From positions 8,095 to 72,094 of IMG/VR virus record IMGVR_UViG_3300022555_000023: a DNA stretch of 64,000 nt; one strand, written 5' to 3'. The position numbers and the translations under genes were made by a program. Each line of letters starts with the position of its first letter. Position 1 is the stretch's first letter. Origin of the DNA: a virus (taxonomy: Duplodnaviria; Heunggongvirae; Uroviricota; Caudoviricetes). The notes under the pieces were generated by a model. It searched no databases, was not told where the DNA came from, and saw only the letters and a list, made by a program, of their open reading frames with translations. Shown piece by piece: positions 5,690 through 63,999 of the stretch.

Positions 5690-8600
5690 TCAACCCTTGG
5701 CATGCTGCTCAGCTTGGCGACGATAGAATCGTGCCCGACCGAAGTGATTACTCGCTCGGTTCGTGCTGCCGGCAGCTCGGTGCTTCACGGCAGAATCGGC
5801 AAACGCCTCAGATGCCCTGACTGCCAACGAGGCTTTCTCGCCCGGTGATGCCGTGGATGCTCGGTACGCCTTGCCCGCCTGCTGGGCCGTCTTCATGGCC
5901 GCGTCAGCACGCTCCTGCATGGCCGCGTAAGCTGGATGATCCTTGAGCTTGCCCTTGCGGTCTTCAAACTCGTGGTCGCTGGCCCCGTGCTCGTGCAGGT
6001 GCATGAAGGCCATCAGGGCTCGGGCCTGCTCGTCATGGTCTTCGGTTCCGGGCTGGTCTCCGACCGCCTCGGCCAGCTTGGCGGCCTTCATGTGCTTCAC
6101 CGCGGCATCGCCCAGGCGGTTGCCGATCCAGTGGTGCATGGAATCCTCGATGTCGGGCGTCAGGGCCTGCGGCGGTCCACCGTGGTGGTGGGCGTTCATG
6201 GCCTCGCCCGCAGCTATGCGGGCGGCGTAGTCGGCCTGCTCGTACTGGATAGCCTTCTTCGCGTCGGGCTCCTTGGGCTGGCCAGCACTGTACTGATTGC
6301 CGCGGAATTCATGCCCCGCAACGTCACCAAGCTCCAGCGGCACATCCAGACTCAACCGAGCGTCGCGGGGGCGGCGGGGAGGATGGGCTTCAGCCTGGGC
6401 CTTGGCCGCGTTATCTCGCAGGGCCTGCATCCTGCCGGCGGATGGCAGTCTGACCACGTGCTCGCCTGCTCCGCGTATGCGTCGCGATTCCTCCTCGTGT
6501 TCGCGAGCCGCAGAGATTGCTGCCTTCTGGGCGGCGTGGTGCATGCTGGCGAACTCCAGGCTGACGTCACTGCCGTCTTCTTCATGATGCTGGGCGGCGA
6601 GAACATGACCTTTAGCAGCCTTCTGGAACTGCTCGGCGGCCTTATCATGATCTGCCGCCGCACCGGAGGCAATGGCTTTCTTCGCCGTCACCAGGGCCAC
6701 GTTGTTATCGCTGGTCGACGCGATGCTCTTGGCTAGTGCGCCCTTCTGCACCGTACCGGCTAGGGGGAACAACTTATAGTTCCGGATGGCGGCGTTAGCC
6801 TTGGCAGATGATTCTGTTGCCGTGAACTGGTTGCCATGAAACGCGTGCCCTGCGACGTCACCAAGCTCGATAGGTAGATCATGACTCAGGCCCTTGATCT
6901 GGAAATCATTCTGACGGCCCTGCACGTTGGCATTGTGAGCATCCCCGTACTTGCGACCATGCTCGTCATCATCTTCCGGGTTCCAGCCGGCGGCAATGGC
7001 CTGCCTACGCATCTCATCTGCCTGGAGACTCATGCGTTTTCCCTGAGCCATCGAAGTATGACGTGTTGCCAGGTCTTCCAGCTTCTCAGGATCATTGGCA
7101 GCACTCTTCGCCACGGGCAAACCACGGTTCTCATACACGCCCCGCACGGTTCTGCCGACAGCCGCAGCCTCCCTCAGATGACCCGCAGCATCGAGATGAT
7201 GCTGTATGGCCTCGGGTGTATCCCCGGCAGCCAGAGCCCGTGATGCTGCTTGTCCAGCCTGCGTTGTATGGTACTTGTGCTCAACGTAGGCTGACATACT
7301 TACATCATTTGCCGCCGCGTGCGTATCATCATGAAGTTGCTGAGCTGCCGTGACTGCATTGCTTTGCGCTACCGCCGGCAATGCAGTCAAATCTGTCTGG
7401 GGACGGTCATGATACGGCTCGATCATATTCTTACCCACGCTTTGCTGCGGGTTTATGGGCAGTCCCGCATCGTGCGTGATCACAACAGCATTGCCGCGGT
7501 CTTCGACGACCCGGAAGTCACGAGCATCATCTCCGGGATCCTGCCACTCCGGTTTGATGGCTACCCGCTGGCCTGCCAGGTACTGGCCGTGCTGCTCGGC
7601 GGCTCCCTCCAGATACTTAGCCGTCTCAATATGCTCTCGTGCCGCCATTCTGTGCTGGCCGCGTTCAAGCTGGGTCAGCCTTGGTGCCTCAGAGGCATTC
7701 GCATGACCTTCGGCGGCGTCGCGACAACGTGATGCTGCGGCAGAATACAGGCCGTCCTTGACGAGACGCTTCGCATCATCTGAAGCGTCCACATGACGTT
7801 TGCCAGCCCGTGCGCCCTTCGTACTGTTGGTGGCGTCACTAGCCTTCTTCACAGCATCAACGGCTCCCTGGTGCGTGTACTGATTCCCGTGGAACTCGTG
7901 ACCTGCAACGTCACCAAGCTCAAGATCAATATTTAGGCCATGACCTAAATTTAGGTCATCGGCTAACGCGGTGTCAGTTTGGCTCATGGCCATATCCTCT
8001 GGTTTGGTACTTCCAGTCCAAGACTGGAGATGATGGTTCGCCAGTTCCTGTAGGGCCTCGCCGGCAGAGCGACAGGCGTCGGCGGCGTCTTCATGATATG
8101 AATCGTGACCATCGGAACTGTTCAGGTCAGCATCGTTGTGCAGGTCGGCTGTGTGATGATACTCGTTCGCAGCCCTCGCACAGGCTTTGAAAGCAGCGTC
8201 GTTCGACCGGCCCGAGGCTGACTCCTTCAGGGCGACCACGGCTGCCGTGTTGGCCGCACCGTGTGCGTCGCGTGCGGCTGCTCCGCGGCGACCGGGCGGT
8301 GAGCCAATGGCTTCCTTGCTGGCCTTGGCGGCGTAGTCTACGGCCTCCTGTGCGGTCGCGGCGAACCTCCCACGGGCGTCCCGTTCCTGGCCCTCGCCGT
8401 GGCTGGCCCGCAGATCTCCCCGCAGGGCGGTAGCTCCGTCGCCAACAGCGTCGTCCTTGGGCTGGCACGTCTGGCCGCAGGTCGGGCACTTACCATCCTG
8501 ACACGCACCCTTGCAGGCCGGGCAGGTGGCATCCTGGCTCAATGCGGCGTCCTTACCGCCACCGATGAGAACCGGGTGTCCGTTGATCGTGACCCAATGA

Positions 8601-16850: not shown

Positions 16851-17599
16851 AGTTCACCACCGTTGGGCAGATTCTGGATGCGTCGTCGCTTCGGGCGTAA
16901 CTGCGGAGCAGTCGCACCAGGCGGGTCACGCAGATTGGGAATGCACGGCTCTTGGTCGATTTGCCGAATGCTGGCAAAAACGGCGGGCGGTATCTGCATC
17001 GCACGCATCACTCGCTGTTCTAACTCACGCATCTCCTCGGTGATATCTCGGGCTCGCGGCGTATTGGGGTTGCGCGGCTCACACGTCGGCCCAGTTGGTA
17101 CGACGTAGCGAAGATCGAGGGCGTCTTCAATACTACCGCCGTTGTGGACGCTTGGAATGACCGCGACCACCGAATCATGCATTGGGGCCGCTGTATAGCG
17201 GTGCCGATCCATCGCGTCGCGGAACGGCTCCATCGCTTCAAACGCACCATTCAGTGCCGTATCCAGGCCCGTACCAGCGAACACGTCCATCAGGGTGCGG
17301 CCCTGCGGCGGGTCTCGCAGTTCGGGCGGCTCAGGCCGCGGCGTTGCGCTCTGCACAGCCCACCGTAGACAATGCAAAGAGTTGATCATACAACTGCTCC
17401 ATCCCGATGGTGACGACGGATCAGGACTTGAATGTCTGATCACAGCTTCGCCCGCTTCCTTCAGAGCATCGCGATGCTGGGTGATGCGGGCGACGAAGTT
17501 GACCAGTTCATGATACTCCTCAGACGACGCATGGTTGCGTCGGGCTTGGTTGTAATTCCCCAGCAGTCTGTCCAGCGTTCGTCGTTCGTCTTGCGTCAT
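16847..17599 (-). CDS. hypothetical protein with C-terminal RRRIQ tag
   Basis: 250-aa ORF ending ..PKRRRIQNLPNGGEL*. Confidence 0.65.
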   Translation of the reverse strand: MTQDERRTLDRLLGNYNQARRNHASSEEYHELVNFVARITQHRDALKEAGEAVIRHSSPDPSSPSGWSSCMINSLHCLRWAVQSATPRPEPPELRDPPQGRTLMDVFAGTGLDTALNGAFEAMEPFRDAMDRHRYTAAPMHDSVVAVIPSVHNGGSIEDALDLRYVVPTGPTCEPRNPNTPRARDITEEMRELEQRVMRAMQIPPAVFASIRQIDQEPCIPNLRDPPGATAPQLRPKRRRIQNLPNGGEL

Positions 17600-23420: not shown

Positions 23421-23794
23421 AGCTCCCAGCCAGGCCGCGATGATGGCGGCGGTGCAGGTGGTTCGGGCGGCGGTGTCTGCATGCGGCGGCGTACTATGAC
23501 TGGCCTCGTCAGTTCCCGTACCAGGGCGATCATAGCGTTTGTGGCAGTCTCAACGTCGGGCATGCGGCGACTCATGAAGGCCGCCTGCCTGTCTTCCAGT
23601 ATCTGCTTAATGCGGTTCTTGACGTCTTCGTCGGACATAACCTCGCGGCCACGCACGAAGTCCTCGGAGAACCGCATGATCTGGCCACGATACTCTGACT
23701 TACGATAGGCATCGTTGGCCGCGACGAGGCGGGTTAGTAGATTATGCAGAAAGTCGGTGTCGCCTTGGTTCATGCCTAACCAGACACGGCTCAC
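23417..23794 (-). CDS. hypothetical protein with C-terminal RRRMQT tag
   Basis: ..VRRRMQTPPPEPPAPPPSSRPGWEL*. Start is GTG 23794 or ATG 23773. Confidence 0.6.
   Translation of the reverse strand: MSRVWLGMNQGDTDFLHNLLTRLVAANDAYRKSEYRGQIMRFSEDFVRGREVMSDEDVKNRIKQILEDRQAAFMSRRMPDVETATNAMIALVRELTRPVIVRRRMQTPPPEPPAPPPSSRPGWEL
23780..23787 (-). promoter_or_regulatory. GTGTCTGG junction motif
   Basis: Between stop 23791 and ATG 23773. Confidence 0.5.
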
Positions 23795-27840: not shown

Positions 27841-28082
27841 GGCTTCTCCGCCTTCATGCTGATCACGCAGAACGACTCGCTGCGGGAAATCTGGCCACCG
27901 TTCTGATAGTTGAACTTGTGGTACAAAATATGATGCCCCTGCCAGTCGAAGGTAGACCAGCCGTTGCCCACCTCGCGGACGTTCGTCGCTCCCGTGGGAA
28001 GGGTGTCACTGGTCGGGGCCACCGTGGTTTCGCCGCAGCCGATACATAAAACCAGCAGGGCTAGAGCTAGAAGTCGTTTCAT
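27837..28082 (-). CDS. lipoprotein
   Basis: AAGGAGGA SD, MKRLLALALLVLCIGCG lipobox. Confidence 0.7.
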   Translation of the reverse strand: MKRLLALALLVLCIGCGETTVAPTSDTLPTGATNVREVGNGWSTFDWQGHHILYHKFNYQNGGQISRSESFCVISMKAEKP

Positions 28083-28474
28083 GTTTGGATCCTCCTTCGC
28101 GTTGGGGTGGCAGGGGCCGCTGTTTGGCCCCACAGGCGGTCAAAGTCACTGGCCAGCCGTTCTATCGACCTGCGGGCGACGGGCTCACGTGCGGCCACAG
28201 GCGGCGTCACAGCGGGTCGTGACGGGGCCTGGGCTGGCGTTCGGGTAGTTAAGGCCGATACATCGGCCAGGGGCTTGTCCCAGGCGGGCAAACCGGCGTC
28301 TTCCTCGCCCCACGGCAAATGGCCGGGAGCCTCGCCGGTCTCGGACCTCGTGTACTGGCCGAACTTGTCCCGAACCATGACCACCGGCGGCCCAGACTTA
28401 TTTATGAGCCCGTGGAAGATGATCTCGGCAGTAGCTTGGTCGATGTCGTGCATGGTGCTTTCAATACTGGACAC
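28079..28474 (-). CDS. hypothetical protein ending in RRRIQT
   Basis: ..ATPTRRRIQT*. Here the tag codons CGA AGG AGG ATC CAA ACA double as the SD of the lipoprotein gene. Confidence 0.6.
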   Translation of the reverse strand: MSSIESTMHDIDQATAEIIFHGLINKSGPPVVMVRDKFGQYTRSETGEAPGHLPWGEEDAGLPAWDKPLADVSALTTRTPAQAPSRPAVTPPVAAREPVARRSIERLASDFDRLWGQTAAPATPTRRRIQT

Positions 28475-29251: not shown

Positions 29252-29793
29252 TTAGGTTGATTCCTTACTAAATTCCGTTCCACAATCGCCTCTGCAACTC
29301 GAAGTAAAGGCCCCTCACCCCAGACACCCATAGCGTTATTCACTAGTAACCAAACAATTCTAATGTTACCCTGAACGTAACCACACGATGGATCAATACG
29401 ATCTAACGACATCTTTCCGTAGTCAGTAGTTTGCTCAAACGGCATAGCCGTTATAGCACAAACACCGCCCTGTAAATCATAAACCTGACGCAGGTATTCT
29501 AGCGATATGTTGCAATCCAGGTTACGTCTGGCACTACGAGCACGTGCGTTTCGCATCATACACTCTAACGCTATGGAAACATCTACGTGACGACGATCTC
29601 GATGCTTGCGTTGACTCTTGCCAATTATCGCCCTTGCCTTGTCTGGATCATTCTTCCAAAGTTCTGCCCATCTTTTTGCACTACGCATATTTATAGATTC
29701 ACGATTCCGTAGGTAACACTGGCGATTTGTGTACCTCTTTCTAGCCTTCCTAATTTCTTCAGGACTTGTTTGAATTCGTCGTCGTTCTAGCAT
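29248..29793 (-). CDS. HNH homing endonuclease, N-terminal ERRRIQT
   Basis: TAAGGAGC SD before ATG 29793 (MLERRRIQT). ..SLDRIDPSCGYVQGNIRIVWLLVNNAMG. Locally AT-richer than its surroundings. Confidence 0.75.
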   Translation of the reverse strand: MLERRRIQTSPEEIRKARKRYTNRQCYLRNRESINMRSAKRWAELWKNDPDKARAIIGKSQRKHRDRRHVDVSIALECMMRNARARSARRNLDCNISLEYLRQVYDLQGGVCAITAMPFEQTTDYGKMSLDRIDPSCGYVQGNIRIVWLLVNNAMGVWGEGPLLRVAEAIVERNLVRNQPK

Positions 29794-30177: not shown

Positions 30178-30410
30178 GGCATGTGTCCGAAATAGCGGCT
30201 AACCGCGGTATATGATGCTTCGCCGTAGCACACGTGCATCCAAATGGCAGCAGCGATCCACCGAGGCAATTGTGCCCAAGATTTATCCCATTGATAGAGT
30301 GCCCAACTAATCGTTGACCACCCAAAGTAAAACGCCAAAGCATCGTATCCCACGGACAGAACGACCGCCGTGCAACAGATGCTCGCTAGTATGATCGATA
30401 GCGTGCTCAT
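30174..30410 (-). CDS. membrane protein
   Basis: Two or three hydrophobic helices, ATGA overlap downstream. Confidence 0.6.
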   Translation of the reverse strand: MSTLSIILASICCTAVVLSVGYDALAFYFGWSTISWALYQWDKSWAQLPRWIAAAIWMHVCYGEASYTAVSRYFGHMP

Positions 30411-33626: not shown

Positions 33627-34609
33627 TACAGTTCTCCCGTGGACTGAATCCTTCGTCGCACGACGGTTCGCTTGCCGCGTGTAATCTTTCTTCGTTTGAC
33701 TGGTTCCGGACCAAGACGGTTCAACGTCCAGCCGACCGGCAGGACGATGCCATGCTCGGTTTCTCTGTCCATCAGGCCGGCAAGTATCGTGATAGCCAGT
33801 TGGCTGTTGCTGACAACTCGGCTGCCCTGGCGAGACTCACCGGGCGGGTATGTCAGCACCCATATCACGCGGTCGGTATTTGCCTCGACGTGGGCAATAA
33901 TACGTTGTTCAGCATTAACGAACGTTCGCGGCAGCGTGTAGCCCACGGGAAGCCGCTGGACGTTCGGCTCGGCGGGCGTCACCTGGCTGTGGGATCGCAG
34001 TCGTCGCAGATCGGCTTCTGTAATATAGGGCTGATGTTGCTGCTCAACTGCTGCTTCCAGTCGGCGTATAAACTCCGCTCGCGGTACGTCACCACGACCG
34101 AAAAGGTTGCTGAATGACATCGCGTCAGCGTGTGCGCTCGAATAGTTACTGTCCTGCGTCAGCAAGCTGCCCGGTATTCCCAGCGACTCATTAGCCCGCC
34201 GTGCGGCGTCGGTGGTAACAGCGGCTATGGCCTCGGGCGTCGGTGGTGGCGGTGTTGGCCCCAAGCGATGCTGTCGCCGCTCGGGTGGCCGGGCTCCATA
34301 CATAGGCGGAATATCCAGTCGGGATCCACGTCGACGGGCTTCGATGATGTTGGCCGCATGACCGTAGTCCTCACGGTTCCGCTGCGGGTAGAGATGAATA
34401 ATACTGTCAGTATCACTAATCTGCTGACCAAACGGCAGCCCTTCCTGAATAACGATGTATTCTCCGGTTCGCAGGCCGTAGAGGGACACAAGGTGCATGG
34501 CGTCGATGAAATGGCGGTCGCCGTCAGACATGCTGGTGACGTAGCCGGGATGCACTGCGTACCGCGGCCCGTTCATCGGTTCAGGATTGTTTGGGTTCTG
34601 CTGTGGCAT
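33626..34609 (-). CDS. hypothetical protein, YPPG-domain paralogue with C-terminal RRRIQS tag
   Basis: ..VIWVLTYPPGESRQGSRVVSNSQLAITILAGL.. and ..VVRRRIQSTGEL*. Paralogous to 37026..37583. Confidence 0.7.
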   Translation of the reverse strand: MPQQNPNNPEPMNGPRYAVHPGYVTSMSDGDRHFIDAMHLVSLYGLRTGEYIVIQEGLPFGQQISDTDSIIHLYPQRNREDYGHAANIIEARRRGSRLDIPPMYGARPPERRQHRLGPTPPPPTPEAIAAVTTDAARRANESLGIPGSLLTQDSNYSSAHADAMSFSNLFGRGDVPRAEFIRRLEAAVEQQHQPYITEADLRRLRSHSQVTPAEPNVQRLPVGYTLPRTFVNAEQRIIAHVEANTDRVIWVLTYPPGESRQGSRVVSNSQLAITILAGLMDRETEHGIVLPVGWTLNRLGPEPVKRRKITRGKRTVVRRRIQSTGEL

Positions 34610-37025: not shown

Positions 37026-37583
37026 TTAGATTTCACCACTATCGGGTAATGTTTGAATACGTCGCCGCACCGGCCTGGGTGCGTCTTCCATCGCTGGCGT
37101 CCATAACTGGCCACCGTTGGTTTCGATCCACTGCGGAATCACAGGCGGACCTACGCTCTCCAGCCGCCATCCTATTTCACCAGGCTCGGAGGCAGGAAGG
37201 GCTACACCCACCGGCCAGCGGTCGCAGCTTTCCAGGGCCTGTAGTATTTGAACCGATAATTCACAGTTTTCGACTTCCCTGCCACCCTGATAAGATCTGC
37301 CGGGCGGATAGTACAGCACCCAGGCACGCTGGTTCGACGGGCAGGCTGCGGCGATTGCCGACTCTGGCCTGTTCGTGTGCCGCCGGCGGTCGATCCACTC
37401 CCGCATCTTCTGGTAGGCTTCACTCGATGGCAACACGCTCAGATACACGCAGTCACCTACATAATTGGCTGTTGGCATGAATACGTCGTATTCACCAACC
37501 ACCAAACCGTAGTTCTGCACTAGCATACGGGCTTCGGTTATGTCACCGTTCCGTTGCGGGCATATTATATAGTGACTCGGCAT
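37026..37583 (-). CDS. hypothetical protein, YPPG-domain paralogue with C-terminal RRRIQT tag
   Basis: ..AWVLYYPPGRSYQGGREVENCELSVQILQAL.. and ..PVRRRIQTLPDSGEI*. Confidence 0.7.
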   Translation of the reverse strand: MPSHYIICPQRNGDITEARMLVQNYGLVVGEYDVFMPTANYVGDCVYLSVLPSSEAYQKMREWIDRRRHTNRPESAIAAACPSNQRAWVLYYPPGRSYQGGREVENCELSVQILQALESCDRWPVGVALPASEPGEIGWRLESVGPPVIPQWIETNGGQLWTPAMEDAPRPVRRRIQTLPDSGEI

Positions 37584-42740: not shown

Positions 42741-43669
42741 TACTCAAGCGGTGCATTTCCGATATCATATCTCCCGTCACCGGCTCGCGTCAGGGTGCGG
42801 TACTGAAACGGCATTACGCCAGCGTTGGGCGGGGATTGGCTATCGGGTACGATATCGAACGATGGATGATATACAATGAACGCAAACGCCGCACGATGCG
42901 GCTCGTGGTGAACGCTGCGTATGACAGCCCCGTGCGGCAATTCGGGGTCGATGCCGACCACGATGTAGTCGGGATCCTCGCGGTAGAAGGCGATCAGCAG
43001 TTCTCGCTCGCGGATGTAGTATATCATCTCGCGGCGTTCCCGGTTGGGGGCATGGGACATGTCCATGACTCGCCCGCGGGCCACGCCACGCAAATCTTCA
43101 CCGATGGCGGGGCATCGCGGTTGGGCCTCGCAGATGACTCCCGATTGACCGTTTCCCATGTGGAACGCTAGGTTCTCGGGGCCACCCAGCGGTAACGGGG
43201 CTGCCCGCCCGCCTGAACGCGGCACGTTGCTCACGTTGGGCCTTGCGGAAGATACGCGGCCCGTTTCCGTACTATGCCACTGAAGCCGCCTGTCGAGGTT
43301 TACGGCCTCGTCAAAGGCTACGCCGCTGATCTCCTGTCCGCGAAGCGGTACGTTATCCGGTGGAACCCACAGCCCGGCGATACCGGCACGCTGCCCTGGC
43401 GGGTAGGCCACCTCCATGTTCAGCACCACCTGACCGTTACACACATAAGCTGTACAGTTCCTAACCGTCGCCGGCTCACCGTTGATGTTGATGAATCGGT
43501 TCATCAAGTCGACGTTGATGTTGCCCGGGTCAGGGCTCGCGATCCTCATACCGAATTGACCGGCACGCATCGGTTCGGGGCGTAGGGACGGCGGAACGGG
43601 TGGCGGACCACCTGTGTTCATACGTCGTCGAACTACAGGCGGTGTCTGGATGCGTCTACGTTCGGGCAT
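42740..43669 (-). CDS. hypothetical protein with doubled N-terminal tag
   Basis: MPERRRIQTPPVVRRRMNTGGPP.. after TAGGAGCA SD. Confidence 0.7.
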   Translation of the reverse strand: MPERRRIQTPPVVRRRMNTGGPPPVPPSLRPEPMRAGQFGMRIASPDPGNINVDLMNRFININGEPATVRNCTAYVCNGQVVLNMEVAYPPGQRAGIAGLWVPPDNVPLRGQEISGVAFDEAVNLDRRLQWHSTETGRVSSARPNVSNVPRSGGRAAPLPLGGPENLAFHMGNGQSGVICEAQPRCPAIGEDLRGVARGRVMDMSHAPNRERREMIYYIRERELLIAFYREDPDYIVVGIDPELPHGAVIRSVHHEPHRAAFAFIVYHPSFDIVPDSQSPPNAGVMPFQYRTLTRAGDGRYDIGNAPLE

Positions 43670-44996: not shown

Positions 44997-46211
44997 TTAC
45001 TTCTTTCCGAATCTAAGCCAAATATCACTGCCACTACCACAGGCCGGGCTGAACCAAACACGCTCGCGGCCCGCGTTCCCGCGAAGAAACTGCCCGCCCT
45101 TCTCTACCTTCTTGTTAGCCCCATCCTGACCCTGGTTTCCGTAGCCTCCTGCGGCTGTCCACGCGTGAACTGCCCATCCGTTCTGCTCAAGGATATCACC
45201 TTCCGGTGTATAGCCGCAGTACGCGATGCGGTAGATATTCGTGTCTTTGTTCGCTCGGCACCACGCGGGGTCGGTATGCTGGATGCACCACTCCTTGATC
45301 TTGGTGCTGATGTCGGCATCCTGATTTGTGTATAGGGTGCCGTTGAAGTTGGCATCAGCACCGTAGGGCGGGTCGAACATGATGCCTATTTTGCCCGTTC
45401 CCGTGAACGCGGGCGTCACGGCCCGCGACCAGTCACCGCTGAGGACTAATGTCTGTCGCATGCGGTACGACAGGGCTCGCATCCACGACTTGAGGTAGTC
45501 AAGCTCCTGCCGCAGCACGCCCCGGTTCCCCACGCAGGGCACGCTACAGGTGATGCCGTTGCCGTCCCGTCGCGGGTCGTCCTTCTCCAGGCACACAAGC
45601 TCGTCGTTGATGACGTACCACGGGCCGTCGCCGCTACAGAACCCACCGCCCAGCTTCATGCAGATGCCCCACAGCCACCACGCGCCGAGCTTCACGTCAC
45701 AGAAGTCGGTACTGCCGCCCACGAGCTTCCGCATGCGATCCCTGGATCGCGTGAGGTGCGAGTGGATGGCGTGCAGTTCCATCTCGGCCAGCATGATACC
45801 GTTGCAGATCTCAGCCACCTCGTCGGGATGACGGCTGATGGCCCTCCACGCGTTCACCAGGAGGGCATCGTAGTCGTTGAGGACTTCACGGCCCACCCAC
45901 GGCTGTGGTCGCACGAGGTACGTTGCTGCGGATCCCATGCACGGCTCGATATAGCAGTCGAGGGTCTTGGGATCCAGGCGACTCCATATCTCATTAGCGA
46001 CACCGCTTTTTCCGCCGAAGTACGGATAGGGGGCAACAAGTAGCTTCTCGTCCACGTTCCCGCTATCACCAATATGCCTGCGAGCAGGGGTCGCAATCGA
46101 GCGACGGACGAGGGTACGCTGGTCGGATGTCGGTTCTTCCGCGACGGGAACCTCCACGGACGAGATGATGCGGCGTCGTGTAGGTACGGTTTCGATATTT
46201 CGGCGTTCCAT
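44997..46211 (-). CDS. Dam-like (D12 class) N6-adenine DNA methyltransferase
   Basis: YPYFGGKSGVANEIW..YIEPCMGSAA..NDYDALLVN and catalytic DPPY (IMFDPPYGA). N-terminus MERRNIETVPTRRRII. Confidence 0.8.
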   Translation of the reverse strand: MERRNIETVPTRRRIISSVEVPVAEEPTSDQRTLVRRSIATPARRHIGDSGNVDEKLLVAPYPYFGGKSGVANEIWSRLDPKTLDCYIEPCMGSAATYLVRPQPWVGREVLNDYDALLVNAWRAISRHPDEVAEICNGIMLAEMELHAIHSHLTRSRDRMRKLVGGSTDFCDVKLGAWWLWGICMKLGGGFCSGDGPWYVINDELVCLEKDDPRRDGNGITCSVPCVGNRGVLRQELDYLKSWMRALSYRMRQTLVLSGDWSRAVTPAFTGTGKIGIMFDPPYGADANFNGTLYTNQDADISTKIKEWCIQHTDPAWCRANKDTNIYRIAYCGYTPEGDILEQNGWAVHAWTAAGGYGNQGQDGANKKVEKGGQFLRGNAGRERVWFSPACGSGSDIWLRFGKK

Positions 46212-53615: not shown

Positions 53616-54686
53616 TCATTCAGACACAGATGATTCTAGACGTCGCCGCGTCAATTGCCGGCCTACGGTTTCCTCCGGGTTGGCCCGTGGAAACTGCGGG
53701 CCGGCCAAGCACGCCTTGCCCGCTGCCTTCAGGTCGTCGCTGATCTGGTCGGCGTTGCTGGCGCAGTAGTGATTGAACAGGTCACCGGGCGGCAGACGCC
53801 GGGCGGCCAAGTCCATCGGGCTCATGTGGTGAACATCGCGTTCCACGAGCCTGCACCCGCACAGCACGGCCCTTTGGCGTTCGGCAAACTCCTGCACCCG
53901 CCGGCGGCACTCGTTCCAGGTGTCAAACTCGGCCCGCTTCAGCCGCACCTCGATCTTGATCATGTCGCCGGGGTTCACCCGCATATCGGTAAGCCGGTCG
54001 GTGCCATCGATGACCAGCTTCCGCTTGGCCGGGAACGGCGGGTTGATATCCTCGTAGTCCCGACCACTGTCGAAGATCACCCGCGGTATGTATTCATCGC
54101 CGAAGTCAACGTGGTACGGTGCCCCGACATACTCGATGTTCGCCAGCCGCTGCGGAACATGAACGTCCCCGCAGTATACCCTCGCCCGCGTACCCGAGAA
54201 CGTCGAAGTCGGCAGGCCATCTAAACGCTTCCCGCCGCCGATACTGGCCCCGTGGAATGTCTGGTGGGCGAATATGTAGTCGAAGTCGGACATCCTGTAG
54301 CCTTCGGCGTACTGCCGCACAGCCCGCGTGTGAGGCAGGAACAGGCACTTGGACTCGCCGAGGGTGCGCTTGGTAGGCTCCAGAAAGAACTCCACGCCCG
54401 TATGCCGCAGCCAACGGAAGTAGGGCACGTCGGGGTTCACGTAATCGTGGTTGCCCATCAGAACGATAGTCGGAGCGGCGTCGTCGAGGAGTTTCAGCCC
54501 ATCGGCAATAGCGTTCGCCAGGGCCGAAGAGTGTCGATCCTTGGATTCCGTCAAATCCCCAAGGATTATGATATAGTTCACGTGCCGCCGCGTCGCCTCA
54601 CCCGCCAGCCACTCAAAGATTCTCAATCGATAGGCGTCTCGCAGGTTATCGGTCTCGTGCAGGTCGCTGGCTATCAGTAAGTTCAT
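53616..54686 (-). CDS. Mre11/SbcD-like metallophosphoesterase nuclease
   Basis: LIASDLHE, ILGDLTE, MGNHD and FAHQTFHGA calcineurin-like motifs. C-terminus ..LTRRRLESSVSE*. Confidence 0.8.
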   Translation of the reverse strand: MNLLIASDLHETDNLRDAYRLRIFEWLAGEATRRHVNYIIILGDLTESKDRHSSALANAIADGLKLLDDAAPTIVLMGNHDYVNPDVPYFRWLRHTGVEFFLEPTKRTLGESKCLFLPHTRAVRQYAEGYRMSDFDYIFAHQTFHGASIGGGKRLDGLPTSTFSGTRARVYCGDVHVPQRLANIEYVGAPYHVDFGDEYIPRVIFDSGRDYEDINPPFPAKRKLVIDGTDRLTDMRVNPGDMIKIEVRLKRAEFDTWNECRRRVQEFAERQRAVLCGCRLVERDVHHMSPMDLAARRLPPGDLFNHYCASNADQISDDLKAAGKACLAGPQFPRANPEETVGRQLTRRRLESSVSE

Positions 54687-54833: not shown

Positions 54834-55451
54834 TCACATCGCGGCTGAATTGATTCCGCCATTCGTCACCACGCCATAGTATGTGATCAGCAGGGCGTCG
54901 CATACCGCCATTTGCTCCTTCTTCGTCTTCTGCCACACGTCCAGATCGGGCATCAGTTCCTGAGCCCGCTTGCGGATATCCTCTTTGTGTTCAGCCTGGA
55001 GCAGTGCTTTGACCGCCTTGGTCGTCCGTGTGCTGCCGTCCTGCTTGCGGAAGTCCACGGGCACTGGCTTGCGGGTCGTCGGGATGTTCATGGCCCGCTG
55101 CCAAGTGGCGGGCTGCACCTTAACCGGGATGATATCCAGAGCTGTCATGAACGCCAGAAGTCGCCCGTAACCTACGCCAAACTTGAATGCCCCAGCCACG
55201 CCCATCGCATAGGCATGCACGGCCTCGATGTAGACGCTGACGTTGCTTGGATCCGCGATATGCTGCCGCAGCCAAGCCCACAGTTCGTCGTTCCCTTCGG
55301 GCATCCGCTTGACCAACATGATCGCGTTGGGTCCGGTCTCGGTGACAGCCAAGCCACCGTTCATGCCGGGATCGATACCCATGATCAGTCTGCGTTCGGG
55401 AGTGATCACCTCACGCCAGTCGGTAGTTTTAATGCGGCGGCGTTCGGTCAC
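54834..55451 (-). CDS. RuvC-like Holliday junction resolvase, N-terminal ERRRIKT
   Basis: IMGIDPGMNGG, VYIEAV, ..PATWQRAM.., VCDALLI catalytic pattern. Confidence 0.75.
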   Translation of the reverse strand: MTERRRIKTTDWREVITPERRLIMGIDPGMNGGLAVTETGPNAIMLVKRMPEGNDELWAWLRQHIADPSNVSVYIEAVHAYAMGVAGAFKFGVGYGRLLAFMTALDIIPVKVQPATWQRAMNIPTTRKPVPVDFRKQDGSTRTTKAVKALLQAEHKEDIRKRAQELMPDLDVWQKTKKEQMAVCDALLITYYGVVTNGGINSAAM

Positions 55452-60276: not shown

Positions 60277-61470
60277 TTAGCTACCGTACTTCGAGAAGTT
60301 CGGCGAGAATGACTCCTCGATCTTGTCCCACTCGGCCCGCACCACTGCGGACATACGCTTGGATTCGCTAATGTACATTTCACGCGGCTGTTTGTCCAGC
60401 CACTTCAGGTACGTTCCAGGTTTTCGTTCATCGAACAGTTCCCACTTCTTCACCTCAACTAACCAGTCTGCCATCGATTCGATGTCATCGATGCCGTAGT
60501 CAAAGATCACGGGGAACTCGCACTCGCGGAACGGCGGGCCACACTTGTTCTTCTTGCACTTGGCCTTGATGCGAACACCGACCACGCGTTCGATGCCGTT
60601 GACCGAGCGTTTGATCTGGCCAATATGCGACAGCCACACCACCCACGAAGCGTAGAAGTCCAGGGCTTTGCCGCCGGCACGCGTCGCCTTCTCGCCGAAC
60701 GATACATTCAGCTTGTCGCGTAGCTGCGAGATGACTATCAGGGTCACCTTGGCGGAGTTCAAAGGGCCGGCCAGGGTGCGGAAGAACTGTGACATGCGTT
60801 TGGCCTTCGCCATACCGTAACTGGCCTTGTCCATACCGCCATCCAGTTCGGCCTGATCGCTCAGGGCATCAAGGCTATCGATGATATACAAGCCTGGCAC
60901 GCGACGGCGTTCACACTCGGCAATGAAGTCCTTCACGTCCTGAAAGAACACCTCGACGATACGGCACTCCTCGACGAAGCTGATTCTGTCCATCGGCAGT
61001 CCCATGCGGCGGGCATAATTCACATCGAACGCGGCCTCGGCGTCGTTATATCGCGTGATGCCGGTCGGATAGGCGATGGAAAAGTTGGCACACGCCTCGA
61101 TGCATACGCCTGTCTTGTTCGTTGACTGCCAGCCAGCGAAGTTCACCACGCGGCCTTCAGGGAACGCTCCGCCACCACCACCACCAATCTCGCAGTCCAG
61201 AAGGGTACAGCCCGAACCGAATCGTTTAACACGGATATCCTCCATGTCGCCCGTGAGCCCGTAGGCCCCACCGTCGCGTACCAACGGCTCGTCATCGGTA
61301 TCGCGGGCGGTCTTGCGGCGAGTAGCCTTAGCCGTGCGACGTGGGGCTGCACGTGACCCGCGGGCCGGTGTTTCATCTTCGGTTGACTCGACGTCTTCGT
61401 CCTCTTCCTCACGCTGCGGAGGTGGGGGCGTTGCCGTTACGAGACGTCGTCGAACTATTTTCTTCGCCAT
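60277..61470 (-). CDS. RecA-fold recombinase-like ATPase
   Basis: Degenerate P-loop GWQSTNKTG, Walker B LYIIDSLDAL, GGKALDFYAS as in RecA. Acidic N-terminal region preceded by MAKKIVRRRLVT. Confidence 0.65.
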   Translation of the reverse strand: MAKKIVRRRLVTATPPPPQREEEDEDVESTEDETPARGSRAAPRRTAKATRRKTARDTDDEPLVRDGGAYGLTGDMEDIRVKRFGSGCTLLDCEIGGGGGGAFPEGRVVNFAGWQSTNKTGVCIEACANFSIAYPTGITRYNDAEAAFDVNYARRMGLPMDRISFVEECRIVEVFFQDVKDFIAECERRRVPGLYIIDSLDALSDQAELDGGMDKASYGMAKAKRMSQFFRTLAGPLNSAKVTLIVISQLRDKLNVSFGEKATRAGGKALDFYASWVVWLSHIGQIKRSVNGIERVVGVRIKAKCKKNKCGPPFRECEFPVIFDYGIDDIESMADWLVEVKKWELFDERKPGTYLKWLDKQPREMYISESKRMSAVVRAEWDKIEESFSPNFSKYGS

Positions 61471-61613
61471 GATCTAACCTTCCTGATGCCCCGTATGCAC
61501 AGTCCTATGAAGAAGACATACAACATTCCGGGTGCGGTCAAAATGATGAACGGGAAAGTCCAAATCTTGTGAACTTTCTCCGCCTCGTCGCATACGTCTA
61601 AAAACCAGTTCAT
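61455..61613 (-). CDS. small membrane protein (52 aa)
   Basis: GAGG SD, MNWFLDVC..FPFIILTAPGMLYVFFIGLCI. Overlaps the recombinase start. Confidence 0.45.
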   Translation of the reverse strand: MNWFLDVCDEAEKVHKIWTFPFIILTAPGMLYVFFIGLCIRGIRKVRSWRRK

Positions 61614-61638
61614 AGTTACCTCGGCTGACTAGACACGA

Positions 61639-61887
61639 TCACGGTTGCTTTCCCGTTTCCGTAGTCTGATACCGCATCCGCATCTCGACGCCTGACATAC
61701 CACAGCGAGGACAGCGTTGCCTGATGGAATCGTACTTGAACCAGTACGGCATGAAGAAGCACGGATGCGGTAGGCCACGGAGGCGTTCGCCTGGATCCAT
61801 CCGGTCAGCACTCGCCTGTCGAAGAAGTAGATCGATCTCGGCATCGTCATTATCGACAGGCGAGGTGACCGGACTCGCTGGAACCAT
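61639..61887 (-). CDS. hypothetical protein
   Basis: GGAGA SD 9 nt upstream. C-terminal CPRCG. Confidence 0.55.
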   Translation of the reverse strand: MVPASPVTSPVDNDDAEIDLLLRQASADRMDPGERLRGLPHPCFFMPYWFKYDSIRQRCPRCGMSGVEMRMRYQTTETGKQP

Positions 61888-61989
61888 AGCTCATGATCTC
61901 CATATAAAGCGAGCCCGGCTATTTCGGAATCGCCGCCGGGCGGGGCACGTGCAGGCCCCTCAGAGACCGTCGTCATCTGCATGCCTGCA

Positions 61990-62457
61990 CTTGTTCATTC
62001 TGCCGTAGAACGATCATATCGTTCGCGCCTGCATGTCGTTGACGCATTGCTGGCTTAACCGTTTTCGATACCATCGGTCGCTACGAGCTACCTACTGCAT
62101 CGTTCGTATCTAACCACCTCCGCTATCACCGTAGTATGCTAGGTAGGAGTGCAAACCCAGCGCGTCTACGAGCACATCGTCGTCTGATCCAAGAACAAAC
62201 CCGTCGCTTCGCAATCGGGTGGTGAAGGCTGGTCTCGCAGGCAACCCTGCCGCCTTGCGTTGACAGGCCATGCTGCGGTCGAGTGGAACGCCCATCAGGT
62301 GTGCTCAAGCGCGTCCATCCCAATCCGTCCTGATTCCGGCCAGCCCTCACCACCCGCCTCTCCCCCACTGGGACTGAGAGGCGAAGCCTTGCGGCTACCC
62401 ACCAGTCTACCCGTCGCCGGGTTTTCCTTCTAGTGCAGGTAGTCGCAATCATTCGGT
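61990..62457 (-). ncRNA. candidate structured non-coding RNA
   Basis: No convincing ORF. 17-bp long-range helix (62340..62356 with 62215..62232; its G-U pair is only valid on the minus-strand transcript). GCAA tetraloop hairpin at 62385..62396. 7-bp hairpin at 62356..62382. Confidence 0.35.
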
Positions 62458-63780
62458 TCAGCTTTCGCTGCGGCGGCGTCCCTCGGCCACGCGATCCCGC
62501 AAGCTCGTGCGTGCGGGCGGGGCGTCGTCGGCATCGGCGTCGCGGCTTCGGCTGCGGGTCTCGCGGGCCGGTGGGTCAGTAGCCTCCTCGGCAGCACGGC
62601 TGCTGCGGCGGCGGGCTGGCGGGGCGTCGTCGTGGCCCGTGTCGCGGGCTGGCGGCGGGTCACGGTCGTCATCGACGTCCGCGTCGGCTTCTCGGCTGCG
62701 GCCCCCGTTGCGGCCAGCACGGGCCGGTGGCGGGTCATCGTCGTGGTCGTCGCGGTCGCGTCCTCGCCCACGTGCGGGCGGCGGATCATCATCAACGTCA
62801 GCGTCGCGTCCCCGGATCGCCGGTCGGCGGGCTCGGTTGTCGTCATCGTCGTCGGCGATATCGCGTGCTCGGCTACGGCTGCCGCGATCACCATCGTCGT
62901 CGTCGCGGGCGTGCCTGCGGTCGTCACCGCGATTTCCACCGCCTCGGCGATCATCTCCACCTTCGTCGCGGTTGCGGCGTTGCCCGGCCAGAGCAGCCTT
63001 GATGTGCTCATAGTCGTGGAAGGTGAGAAGCTCGGGAATCGGATTCTCGGCGATGGTACGCAACCAGTCGTCCTGACGGTCAGGGTTGTCGCTCAGCGGC
63101 GTGCTGCGGCGAGCAATGGCGATGCCACCGTACTTCGTCTTGATGCCGGTGCCGGTCACAGAAAACTCGATGTCGAATCCCTCCTCGGGATGATCGATGC
63201 ACACGGCTTCGCGGGTTTCCTTGTCCATGCTCAGCTTGTTCAAGTCGCGGTCCATCGACCACGCCATGTTCCAAAGCTGCGGGCCACTGTTGCGTTCGTC
63301 GCGGTCGATCACGTATGCGATCACCCGCTTTGTCGGCTGAAGGTTGCGGATGTAATCGTCGAAGTCCTTATCCGCCATCGACATCCCAGCAGCACCCAGT
63401 GCGGCGACGCGTTCACGCTCTTCGCACACCGGGCAGGCTTCGCCCTTCATCTTCTTCAGGCAGAAGTACTTCTGATTGTCCGCGCCCACGCTGAAGTGAA
63501 CATAGACCTCCAGGCCAAAGTCATCGGCACCTTCCGGATCCCAGTCGTCGGAACGTGTGGGATGGACGATCCCCAGTTCTTCCAGCAGATGATCGTTCCA
63601 CGACGGCGGGCAGATACGCAGCCGCCAGTCGCCCTCCTTGATGGAGACGACGTCAACATCGCTGCGGAACAGCGAGTCGAAAGCACCACCGCTCTGGTTG
63701 GCACGCCGCTGTACGGTGGCCGATGAGCGTTCGCGGTATTGAAAACCGCCGCGATTTCGGTCGTTGCCTCTTGTAGGCAT
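62458..63780 (-). CDS. gp32-like single-stranded DNA-binding protein with repetitive Asp/Arg/Pro tail
   Basis: H-x11-C-x8-C-x2-C (YVHFSVGADNQKYFCLKKMKGEACPVCEE) mirrors the T4 gp32 zinc site. The C-terminal ~170 aa carry six D-rich (P)PPAR repeats. Confidence 0.75.
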   Translation of the reverse strand: MPTRGNDRNRGGFQYRERSSATVQRRANQSGGAFDSLFRSDVDVVSIKEGDWRLRICPPSWNDHLLEELGIVHPTRSDDWDPEGADDFGLEVYVHFSVGADNQKYFCLKKMKGEACPVCEERERVAALGAAGMSMADKDFDDYIRNLQPTKRVIAYVIDRDERNSGPQLWNMAWSMDRDLNKLSMDKETREAVCIDHPEEGFDIEFSVTGTGIKTKYGGIAIARRSTPLSDNPDRQDDWLRTIAENPIPELLTFHDYEHIKAALAGQRRNRDEGGDDRRGGGNRGDDRRHARDDDDGDRGSRSRARDIADDDDDNRARRPAIRGRDADVDDDPPPARGRGRDRDDHDDDPPPARAGRNGGRSREADADVDDDRDPPPARDTGHDDAPPARRRSSRAAEEATDPPARETRSRSRDADADDAPPARTSLRDRVAEGRRRSES

Positions 63781-63885: not shown

Positions 63886-63999
63886 TCATTCTCGCGAGGT
63901 GCTGTTCATGCGACGTCGCTGGTCCGCCACGGCTTGGCGGGCCTCGTCACCTGCACGTTCTTCGGCGGCACGTCGGTCACCGGCGAGGCTTGCGTTGGC
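63886..63999 (-). CDS. hypothetical protein, 5' end beyond window
   Basis: Open frame from the window edge to TGA at 63886..63888. Confidence 0.4.
   Translation of the reverse strand, partial: ANASLAGDRRAAEERAGDEARQAVADQRRRMNSTSRE

Follow-up and report, generated by a model that had tools for sequence, protein, structure and literature searches.

A nearly neutral, block-charged tail with a basic end on a phage single-stranded DNA-binding protein, and Arg-rich terminal peptides on DNA enzymes of the same phage

The tails of SSBs, proteins that bind single-stranded DNA, serve as organizing hubs for replication and repair, both in bacteria and in phage T4. The acidic C-terminal regions of T4 gp32 and of bacterial SSBs recruit replication and recombination proteins; the gp32 tail moreover acts as a gate on DNA binding, and its partners include UvsX, gp46/47, RNase H, and Dda. 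An SSB gene near the end of a 64,000-nucleotide stretch of tailed phage DNA (Caudoviricetes; positions 8,095 to 72,094 of IMG/VR record IMGVR_UViG_3300022555_000023; hereafter the window) raises the question of what its long C-terminal tail, dominated by Arg, Asp, and Pro, may do. A sequence-only reading had proposed a docking platform, in which six acidic-run-PP(P)AR units of the tail would receive short basic RRRIQT tags carried at the termini of about 19 further proteins of the same genome. Our analysis splits this proposal. A recruiting or regulatory arm is plausible, whereas the acid-PPAR units as docking sites for the tags remained unsupported, with comparative tests across relatives giving no support for such a tag-to-tail recruitment.

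The gene is complete and encodes a folded core followed by the tail:

62458..63780, minus strand: complete SSB gene, 440 codons plus stop (list of open reading frames (ORFs), PHROG matches, 111 homologues)
62986..63780, minus strand: folded gp32-like core, residues 1-265 (AlphaFold, Foldseek)
63424..63498, minus strand: putative zinc-binding segment H95-x11-C107-x8-C116-x2-C119 (read from the sequence)

The protein matched PHROG 34306 (E 2.8e-34) as well as PHROG 1192, "single strand DNA binding protein" (E 2.6e-11). A total of 111 homologues were collected and used to build a single-chain AlphaFold model, in which the core is confident (predicted local distance difference test, pLDDT, mostly >90 for residues ~40-268). 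The best Foldseek matches of this core were the RB69 gp32 core 2a1k (E 6.4e-8) and T4 gp32 (8gme and 1gpc), all with a probability of 1.0, E-values from 6e-8 to 1.5e-6, and target TM-scores of 0.55-0.62 at an identity of 11-14%. On the sequence level, Pfam gp32 (PF08804) scored 23.2 bits (E 7.7e-5) and thus stayed under the cut-off of 26.8, and a search of the PDB sequences with a profile of the 111 homologues returned nothing at E <= 0.01. Consequently, the label "gp32-like" given before is correct at the fold level only; the window SSB belongs to a distant sister clade of the gp32-type SSBs and is not a core member.

A His/Cys3 zinc subdomain is putatively present as well. C107, C116, and C119 are invariant in the seven closest homologues, H95 is kept in at least 90% of the 111 homologues, and the segment shows a spacing similar to that of the His/Cys3 site of T4 gp32, in an equivalent place. 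The CxxC pair is replaced (e.g., by GEPDPIAEERD) in homologues P0011, P0037, P0038, P0057, P0065, and P0099 (alignment A1). Since some distant members are devoid of the Cys residues, the putative zinc binding is not universal in the clade. The N-terminus of the window SSB, MPTRGNDRNRGGFQYRERSS, contains no Lys/Arg triplet followed by Ser/Thr, i.e., it is devoid of the (Lys/Arg)3(Ser/Thr)2 cooperativity motif. The family conserves an N-terminal basic-F-x-Y peptide, which could be analogous to the gp32 motif. An insertion of ~20 residues in the core, NDHLLEELGIVHPTRSDDWDPEGADD (residues 62-82, ~63535-63597), is common only to the close relatives P0002 and P0003; because of it, HMMER matches to the rest of the family fall into two parts.

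By composition, the low-complexity tail comprises 175 amino acids, in good agreement with the ~170 residues proposed earlier, and the six acid-run-PP(P)AR units were found exactly as listed before, with verified coordinates:

62461..62985, minus strand: mixed-charge tail, predicted to be disordered, residues 266-440 (composition, charge patterning, pLDDT, substitution rates)
62806..62985, minus strand: proximal R/D/G-rich part, residues 266-325, with two long Asp runs (DDDDGD, DDDDDN) and no PPAR (translation)
62770..62805, minus strand: unit 1, DADVDDDPPPAR (translation)
62719..62751, minus strand: unit 2, DDHDDDPPPAR (translation)
62644..62682, minus strand: unit 3, ADVDDDRDPPPAR (translation)
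62611..62631, minus strand: unit 4, DDAPPAR (translation)
62563..62589, minus strand: unit 5, EEATDPPAR (translation)
62509..62541, minus strand: unit 6, DADADDAPPAR (translation)
62461..62508, minus strand: basic segment TSLRDRVAEGRRRSES at the C-terminus, conserved and predicted to form an amphipathic helix (DSSP, pLDDT, homologues)

The tail contains 42 R, 42 D, 23 A, 17 G, 16 P, and 7 E, with only six hydrophobic residues. Its 49 acidic and 42 basic residues correspond to a charged fraction of 0.52 and a net charge per residue of -0.04. These charges are more segregated than in shuffled sequences (z = 3.1, kappa ~0.25), and the units exceed the expectation from composition, as three or more PPAR occurred in only 1 of 20,000 shuffles of the tail. 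In the AlphaFold model, most of residues 269-419 have a pLDDT <50 and no secondary structure. The disorder and repeat analysis suggested in the sequence-only reading thus gave a tail predicted to be intrinsically disordered, with units that are non-random against shuffles.

The end of the tail is not acidic. DSSP assigned a helix to residues 427-439 (pLDDT 67-82) amid the otherwise disordered region, and the relatives of 70% and 68% identity agree with the window protein in all of the last 12 aligned residues, SLRDRVAEGRRR. This basic terminal helix had been missed before. The protein ends with ...EGRRRSES and carries no acidic-hydrophobic tip D-D-D-I-P-F.

A tandem repeat on DNA level was considered as the origin of the units and rejected: Tandem Repeats Finder gave only two unrelated short arrays, and the six units are encoded by differing synonymous codons. 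With varying codons and no matching tandem DNA repeat, the repetition is maintained on peptide level and does not stem from a recent DNA duplication. An overlapping antisense gene was likewise rejected. The plus-strand frames of 62458-63780 are stop-free over up to 422 codons, also in relatives, but coding was unsupported, and we regard these frames as a codon-bias artefact of an SSB gene rich in G and C at third codon positions. No Rfam match was obtained around the SSB gene, and consensus scans for promoters and terminators there stayed at or below chance.

Could such a sequence simply be functionally neutral, arisen by slippage and drift of composition? Its low complexity and the wide variation of tail length and sequence across the SSB family would fit this explanation. 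We nevertheless consider it very improbable. The ratio of nonsynonymous to synonymous substitution rates (dN/dS) relative to the 70% identical P0002 (locus L002) is 0.24 for the tail, at a dS of ~1.2, and 0.155 for the core, indicating that the tail is under purifying selection. About six units are found in all three close relatives, with individual units gained and lost. Neither the lack of a DNA-level repeat nor the varied unit codons point to slippage, and the presence of a tail in every delimitable family member, uniform in its charge statistics and with the terminal helix conserved, is not expected from drift.

These family data derive from a scan with the SSB core alone, in which 1,988 clusters at 50% identity reached E <= 1e-3 and 548 reached E <= 1e-30. 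Tail statistics were calculated for 140 members with a delimitable core (251 sequences were collected in total). All 140 possess tails that are at least 30 residues long, with medians of 157 amino acids for the length, 0.53 for the charged fraction, and -0.07 for the net charge per residue. At least three acid-Pro-base units occur in 57% and at least six in 19% of these tails; their last 12 residues carry a basic net charge (+3 or more) in 59% of cases and an acidic one in 6%. Among the 111 homologues, a basic helix-like end of the RxRL/RLRRMR type (RLRRMRERRD, SIRERVAAE, SLERLKP) was found in 81. A small helical insert (WESIHEMT..ELEDLI..LDINP..DLADWICEE), not present in the window SSB, occurs in about half of the 111. 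The Arg/Asp mixed-charge tail, as judged from these sequences, is the standard for a large uncharacterized clade of phage SSBs and not peculiar to the window phage. Vibrio phage SSP002-like phages and Edwardsiella phage ZHS are among the cultured members, in which the SSB is mostly annotated as "hypothetical" and in a few cases as a single-stranded DNA-binding domain protein. Neither a single-protein scan of viral contigs for close relatives nor a search of cultured phages for near-identical DNA gave a hit.

A canonical bacterial SSB tip, DD(D/E)IPF, terminates four of the 251 relatives. DD[IVLP]P[FW] occurs within the tail of 10 of the 111 homologues, two of which represent such terminal tips. 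These bacterial-type tips are the best hint from within the family that its tails may recruit partners. The nearest clade (46-47% identity; loci L005, L006, L009, L010; P0004, P0009) carries a zinc-knuckle-like CxxC-x10-CxC element inside the tail, followed by basic motifs of the KGRKLK(R/A)LA type resembling the RecA N-terminus AKRLKLGG of the same genomes.

Based on these data, we slightly favor a reading of the tail as a flexible regulatory and recruiting arm of the SSB, with the terminal helix as likeliest specific dock and the tags as separate docking peptides. We infer all functional steps by analogy with T4 gp32 and bacterial SSBs. The shared design comprises a sequence with about half of its residues charged, a net charge near zero, alternating acidic and basic blocks, and a basic amphipathic helix at the end; the "DDDPPPAR" look results from prolines sitting at the acid-to-base junction. 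Acidic blocks may bend onto the core's basic DNA-binding face, competing with single-stranded DNA, or touch basic patches of neighboring molecules, and such contacts would tune DNA binding as well as the association between SSBs. The many alternating blocks could in addition allow multivalent self-association. Specific docking would most likely fall to the conserved helix at the terminus and not to the PPAR units, in the manner of the amphipathic helix of the T4 gp32 C-domain (residues 250-264), which binds Dda while the Ser/Asp-rich end stays disordered (PMC11551737). The RRRIQT-like tags would represent a separate docking peptide on recombination and replication enzymes, for which the SSB is one candidate receptor among several.

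Several points weigh against this interpretation. The moderate confidence of AlphaFold for the terminal helix may mirror helix propensity only. Moreover, the tails of gp32 and bacterial SSBs are acidic, whereas this one is nearly neutral and basic-ended, so that the analogy may fail in detail. Finally, the number of PPAR units is better conserved than a mere spacer needs, and the units may have a specific partner.

What, then, are the tags? The ~19 tagged proteins announced earlier amount to 17 proteins, which together bear 19 motif copies, and to one weaker candidate. From the 18 instances of the window itself, a matrix was derived and run on a non-overlapping ORF set; it recovered 15 of the 18, with 0.35 matches expected from shuffled ORFs; as it was trained on the same sequences, this demonstrates specificity only. 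The tags, with peptides such as MPERRRIQTPP, VVRRRIQSTGEL, and MAKKIVRRRLVT, occupy the very N-terminus (MPERRRIQT...) or lie close to the C-terminus, in most cases on linkers rich in Pro; they keep a hydrophobic residue (Ile/Met) and usually Thr/Ser. A DNA or RNA signal at gene junctions, such as a promoter or ribosome-binding site, was rejected: different synonymous codons are used for Arg, Ile, Gln, and Thr from copy to copy, and the tag is thus a peptide-level motif. All annotated carriers are DNA enzymes, namely RecA, SbcD, a RuvC-like resolvase, a methyltransferase, and an HNH endonuclease; a 5'-3' flap exonuclease, whose copy is weak, may have to be added. No paper was found on the strings RRRIQT, RRRMQT, or RRRIKT. 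Representative copies in the window are:

61435..61452, minus strand: RRRLVT, N-terminus of the RecA/UvsX-like recombinase (gene 60277-61470)
53631..53648, minus strand: RRRLES, C-terminus of SbcD (gene 53616-54686)
55425..55442, minus strand: RRRIKT, N-terminus of the RuvC-like resolvase (gene 54834-55451)
46161..46205, minus strand: two tags, RRNIET and RRRIIS, N-terminus of a Dam-like DNA methyltransferase (gene 44997-46211)
29767..29784, minus strand: RRRIQT, probable N-terminus (MLERRRIQT) of an HNH/endonuclease-VII-like protein
43613..43660, minus strand: two tags, RRRIQT and RRRMNT, N-terminus of a 309-residue protein without assigned function
63901..63918, minus strand: RRRMNS, near the C-terminus of the gene directly upstream of the SSB gene, cut by the window end; L002 reads QRRRLNSS at this position

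Several details of the tags are recorded here for completeness. N-terminal tags have Pro-Glu directly before the Arg triplet (MPERRR). In four of the seven C-terminal tags, a second mini-motif with the pattern G-(x)-E-[LI]-COOH comes next and ends the protein (...RRRIQNLPNGGEL*, ...RRRMQTPPPEPPAPPPSSRPGWEL*, ...RRRIQSTGEL*, and ...RRRIQTLPDSGEI*; positions 16871-16888, 23474-23491, 33641-33658, and 37050-37067, all on the minus strand). The C-terminal RRRIQT* of ORF 28079-28474 (28082-28099) is encoded by CGAAGGAGGATCCAAACATGA, in which the next gene also has its AGGAGG ribosome-binding site and its ATG, so this tag copy overlaps a Shine-Dalgarno sequence. Similarly, an untranslated stretch coding for PERRRLTN precedes the ATG at 30410. 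Between its tag and its core, the window RecA (residues 13-70; 61261-61434, minus strand) carries a 55-residue mixed-charge, Pro-containing insertion, TATPPPPQREEEDEDVESTEDETPARGSRAAPRRTAKATRRKTARDTDDEP, that resembles the SSB tail and is absent from the RecA proteins of relatives.

Strict RRRIQT tags are at chance level in relatives, with 2 matches in 270,000 residues of 65 related loci versus 1.4 expected. Nevertheless, relatives carry short basic-hydrophobic peptides at the RecA N-terminus, 35-45 residues before the SbcD C-terminus, and sometimes at the clamp-loader N-terminus, as exemplified by three loci:

L038: RecA KPKIKG; SbcD KPKIQT; clamp loader, none seen
L013: RecA ARPRI; SbcD ARPRM; clamp loader, none seen
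L026: RecA TRRAITS; SbcD ERRRIKSL; clamp loader TRRAIAT

In permutation tests, the peptides of one genome were more alike than those of different genomes. This held for RecA versus SbcD (p 5e-5, n=21; p 0.002, n=19 with a different genome set), for clamp loader versus RecA (p 0.005, n=10), and for clamp loader versus SbcD (p 0.02, n=14). Because the tags co-vary within genomes, a single co-evolving protein receptor is implied, and the sequence comparisons identify the tags as a family-wide class of putative docking peptides with such a receptor. In the lineage of the window, this class has spread to many more proteins.

The clamp loaders with an N-terminal tag-like peptide are those of L002 (1805-3193, MAERRKLTRD), L026 (2497-3477, MTTRRAIATR), L041 (1496-2518, MATRRKITEQ), and L029 (5373-6452, MNARRKITEE); those of L002 and L026 match PHROG 5846. 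The L026 peptide is almost the one with which RecA of that genome begins, MATRRAITSV.

The charges of tags and tail are complementary (Arg3 versus Asp3-5), which brings up the model of the sequence-only reading in its explicit form: each acid-run-PPAR unit would be a discrete dock for one RRRIQT tag, and one tail would gather up to six tagged enzymes on SSB-coated single-stranded DNA. The tags on 17 proteins and the weaker candidate are real and sit at N- and C-termini on Pro-rich linkers, their annotated carriers are all DNA enzymes of kinds that in model systems bind gp32 or SSB, the 64-kb window has no long acidic low-complexity region besides the SSB tail, and close relatives keep ~6 units. 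The comparison across loci speaks a different language. A higher tag density did not come with more tail units (Spearman rho -0.39, p = 0.07, n = 22 dereplicated loci), and it showed no correlation with the number of acid runs either. PPAR-type tails occur in relatives whose strict tags are at the chance level given above, and L003 has eight acid-Pro-base units in its SSB tail and no tag on RecA or SbcD. The opposite constellation, tags kept beside an unrelated tail, is nearly realized in L023 and L026: their tags (TRRTITS, TRRAITS, ERRRIKSL) are closest to those of the window, and their SSBs have RD/RS-rich N-terminal extensions and tails devoid of any PPAR unit. Furthermore, neither the conservation of Ile/Met and Thr/Ser nor the co-variation between RecA, SbcD, and clamp loader would be expected for a featureless acidic run. 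We therefore judge discrete PPAR docks to be decidedly unlikely, while a looser electrostatic attraction between tags and tail may exist. Since the tags keep their hydrophobic and usually a Ser/Thr residue and co-vary within a genome, these features suggest a shaped pocket rather than a plain acidic run as their receptor.

The SSB is plausible as one candidate among several for this receptor, and the resemblance of the client list to the gp32/SSB interactome is in favor of the SSB in some form. Tags might dock on the folded surface of its core or on its terminal helix and mimic the protein's own cooperativity peptide, just as the LAST motif of gp32, (Lys/Arg)3(Ser/Thr)2, binds the adjacent gp32 core (PMC12893549, PMC11551737). 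The tag form (Arg)3-x-x-Ser/Thr recalls LAST, the core offers a nearly invariant acidic loop, D-x-P-E-E-G-[YF]-D, and both the client list and the single co-evolving receptor implied by the co-variation would fit. The N-terminus of the window SSB itself, MPTRGNDRNRGGFQY, is not tag-like, though, and the terminal motif of the SSB does not co-vary with the tags, which leaves this mimicry rather unlikely in our view. The same numbers led us to reject the SSB terminal motif as a further tag copy, i.e., the SSB as a client: no within-genome co-variation was found with the RecA or SbcD tags (p = 0.81 and 0.21). In the subclade with a zinc knuckle followed by KGRKLKRLA, the SSB motif does look tag-like.

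Alternatively, with the SSB tail uninvolved, the tags could bind another hub, such as a beta-type sliding clamp encoded by the phage, a replicative helicase, some protein of the host, or the DNA itself. The hallmark of clamp clients is a short motif at the extreme termini of many DNA enzymes, and relatives encode their own beta clamp and a gamma/tau-like clamp loader just upstream of the SSB gene. A clamp gene was not found inside the window; the clamp region probably lies beyond nucleotide 64000. The DNA polymerases of relatives (L004-L066; e.g., L013 4588-7173, L033 5190-7757, L060 4839-7493) start with MGFF(Y/F/E) or MGLLF, a conserved, hydrophobic peptide that is chemically like the bacterial beta-clamp-binding motif. 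As it is far closer to the classical motif than the basic tags are, MGFF/MGLLF rather than the tags is probably the clamp motif. Plain DNA binding, in turn, would leave the within-genome co-variation unexplained. Overall, we treat a different hub as a possible, yet somewhat doubtful, explanation.

In the gene neighborhood, RecA directly follows the SSB in relatives, while the window has ~1 kb between both genes (61471-62457). ORFs in this region encode a 52-residue hydrophobic peptide (61455-61613) and an 82-117-residue protein with a CPRC motif (61629-61982), the latter ~75% identical to L002 DNA over 230 nucleotides. The remaining ~470 nucleotides (61983-62457) contain no convincing ORF and gave no Rfam match.

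Returning to the favored reading of a flexible arm, a role of the tail in condensates is possible, because its composition fits Arg-enriched mixed-charge domains and E. coli SSB condenses via its disordered tail. A far-reaching version would have the R/D tail turn SSB-coated single-stranded DNA into a multivalent, condensate-like "replication and recombination factory", with the Arg3 tags as address labels concentrating ~18 proteins. The recombinase, nucleases, resolvase, methyltransferase, and, if tagged as in L002, the clamp loader would be among them. We consider this version quite unlikely. Regardless of it, the large unstudied clade (~2,000 clusters at 50% identity) has a tail design that departs from the textbook acidic tip, namely a neutral block polyampholyte of Arg and Asp with a basic helix at its end. 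If this design supports self-association or client recruitment, it would provide a compact natural system to study how charge-patterned disordered regions organize DNA metabolism, and tags and tail together would form a ready set of peptide and receptor candidates. If not, the finding amounts to the normal tail of this SSB family.

Compared with known systems, T4 and RB69 gp32 share with the window SSB the core fold, the His/Cys3 pattern in the equivalent place, and a disordered C-terminal extension with a short amphipathic helix, and the partners of T4 gp32 belong to the same enzyme classes that carry tags in the window phage. In contrast to gp32, the window tail is nearly neutral, with alternating R/D blocks, PPxR junctions, and a basic end, and the N-terminal KRKST is missing. 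It is also ~3.5 times longer than the gp32 C-domain of ~48 residues. In gp32, the work is divided between the N-terminal basic LAST peptide, binding the core of the neighbor, and the C-domain, binding the partners (PMC12893549).

Bacterial SSBs likewise possess a long Pro/Gly-containing disordered region after an oligonucleotide-binding (OB)-type domain and a short conserved terminal element. The window SSB, unlike them, ends in RRRSES without an acidic-hydrophobic tip and has a gp32-type fold instead of the homotetrameric SSB OB fold. The E. coli SSB linker is largely uncharged (Gly/Gln/Pro), compared with ~52% charged residues in the window tail. The factory reading would reverse the bacterial polarity, with the peptide on the client and the acidic receptor on the SSB. 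In E. coli SSB, disordered linker and tip drive partner binding and condensation, and the bacterial tail is multivalent and implicated in partner recruitment and condensates (10.1101/797431); the few window-family members ending in DD(D/E)IPF share its tip.

In eukaryotes, Arg-enriched mixed-charge domains drive condensates, with blockiness shaping their behavior (PMC9324279). Like the window tail, they are dominated by R and D/E, highly charged at near-zero net charge, and blocky; their context is eukaryotic and RNA-related, and the likeness is one of composition only, with no homology implied. The hub motifs of sliding clamps (bacterial QL[SD]LF, PCNA PIP box) resemble the tags in their 6-8 residues, their position at extreme termini on flexible linkers, and their occurrence on many DNA enzymes, but are hydrophobic, whereas the tags are strongly basic. 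Sliding-clamp networks moreover use a folded ring, whereas the hub proposed in the sequence-only reading is a disordered SSB tail. While regulatory and recruiting tails of SSBs are already known, the neutral, block-charged tail with a basic tip is new, and the tag network is the more unusual feature of the two.

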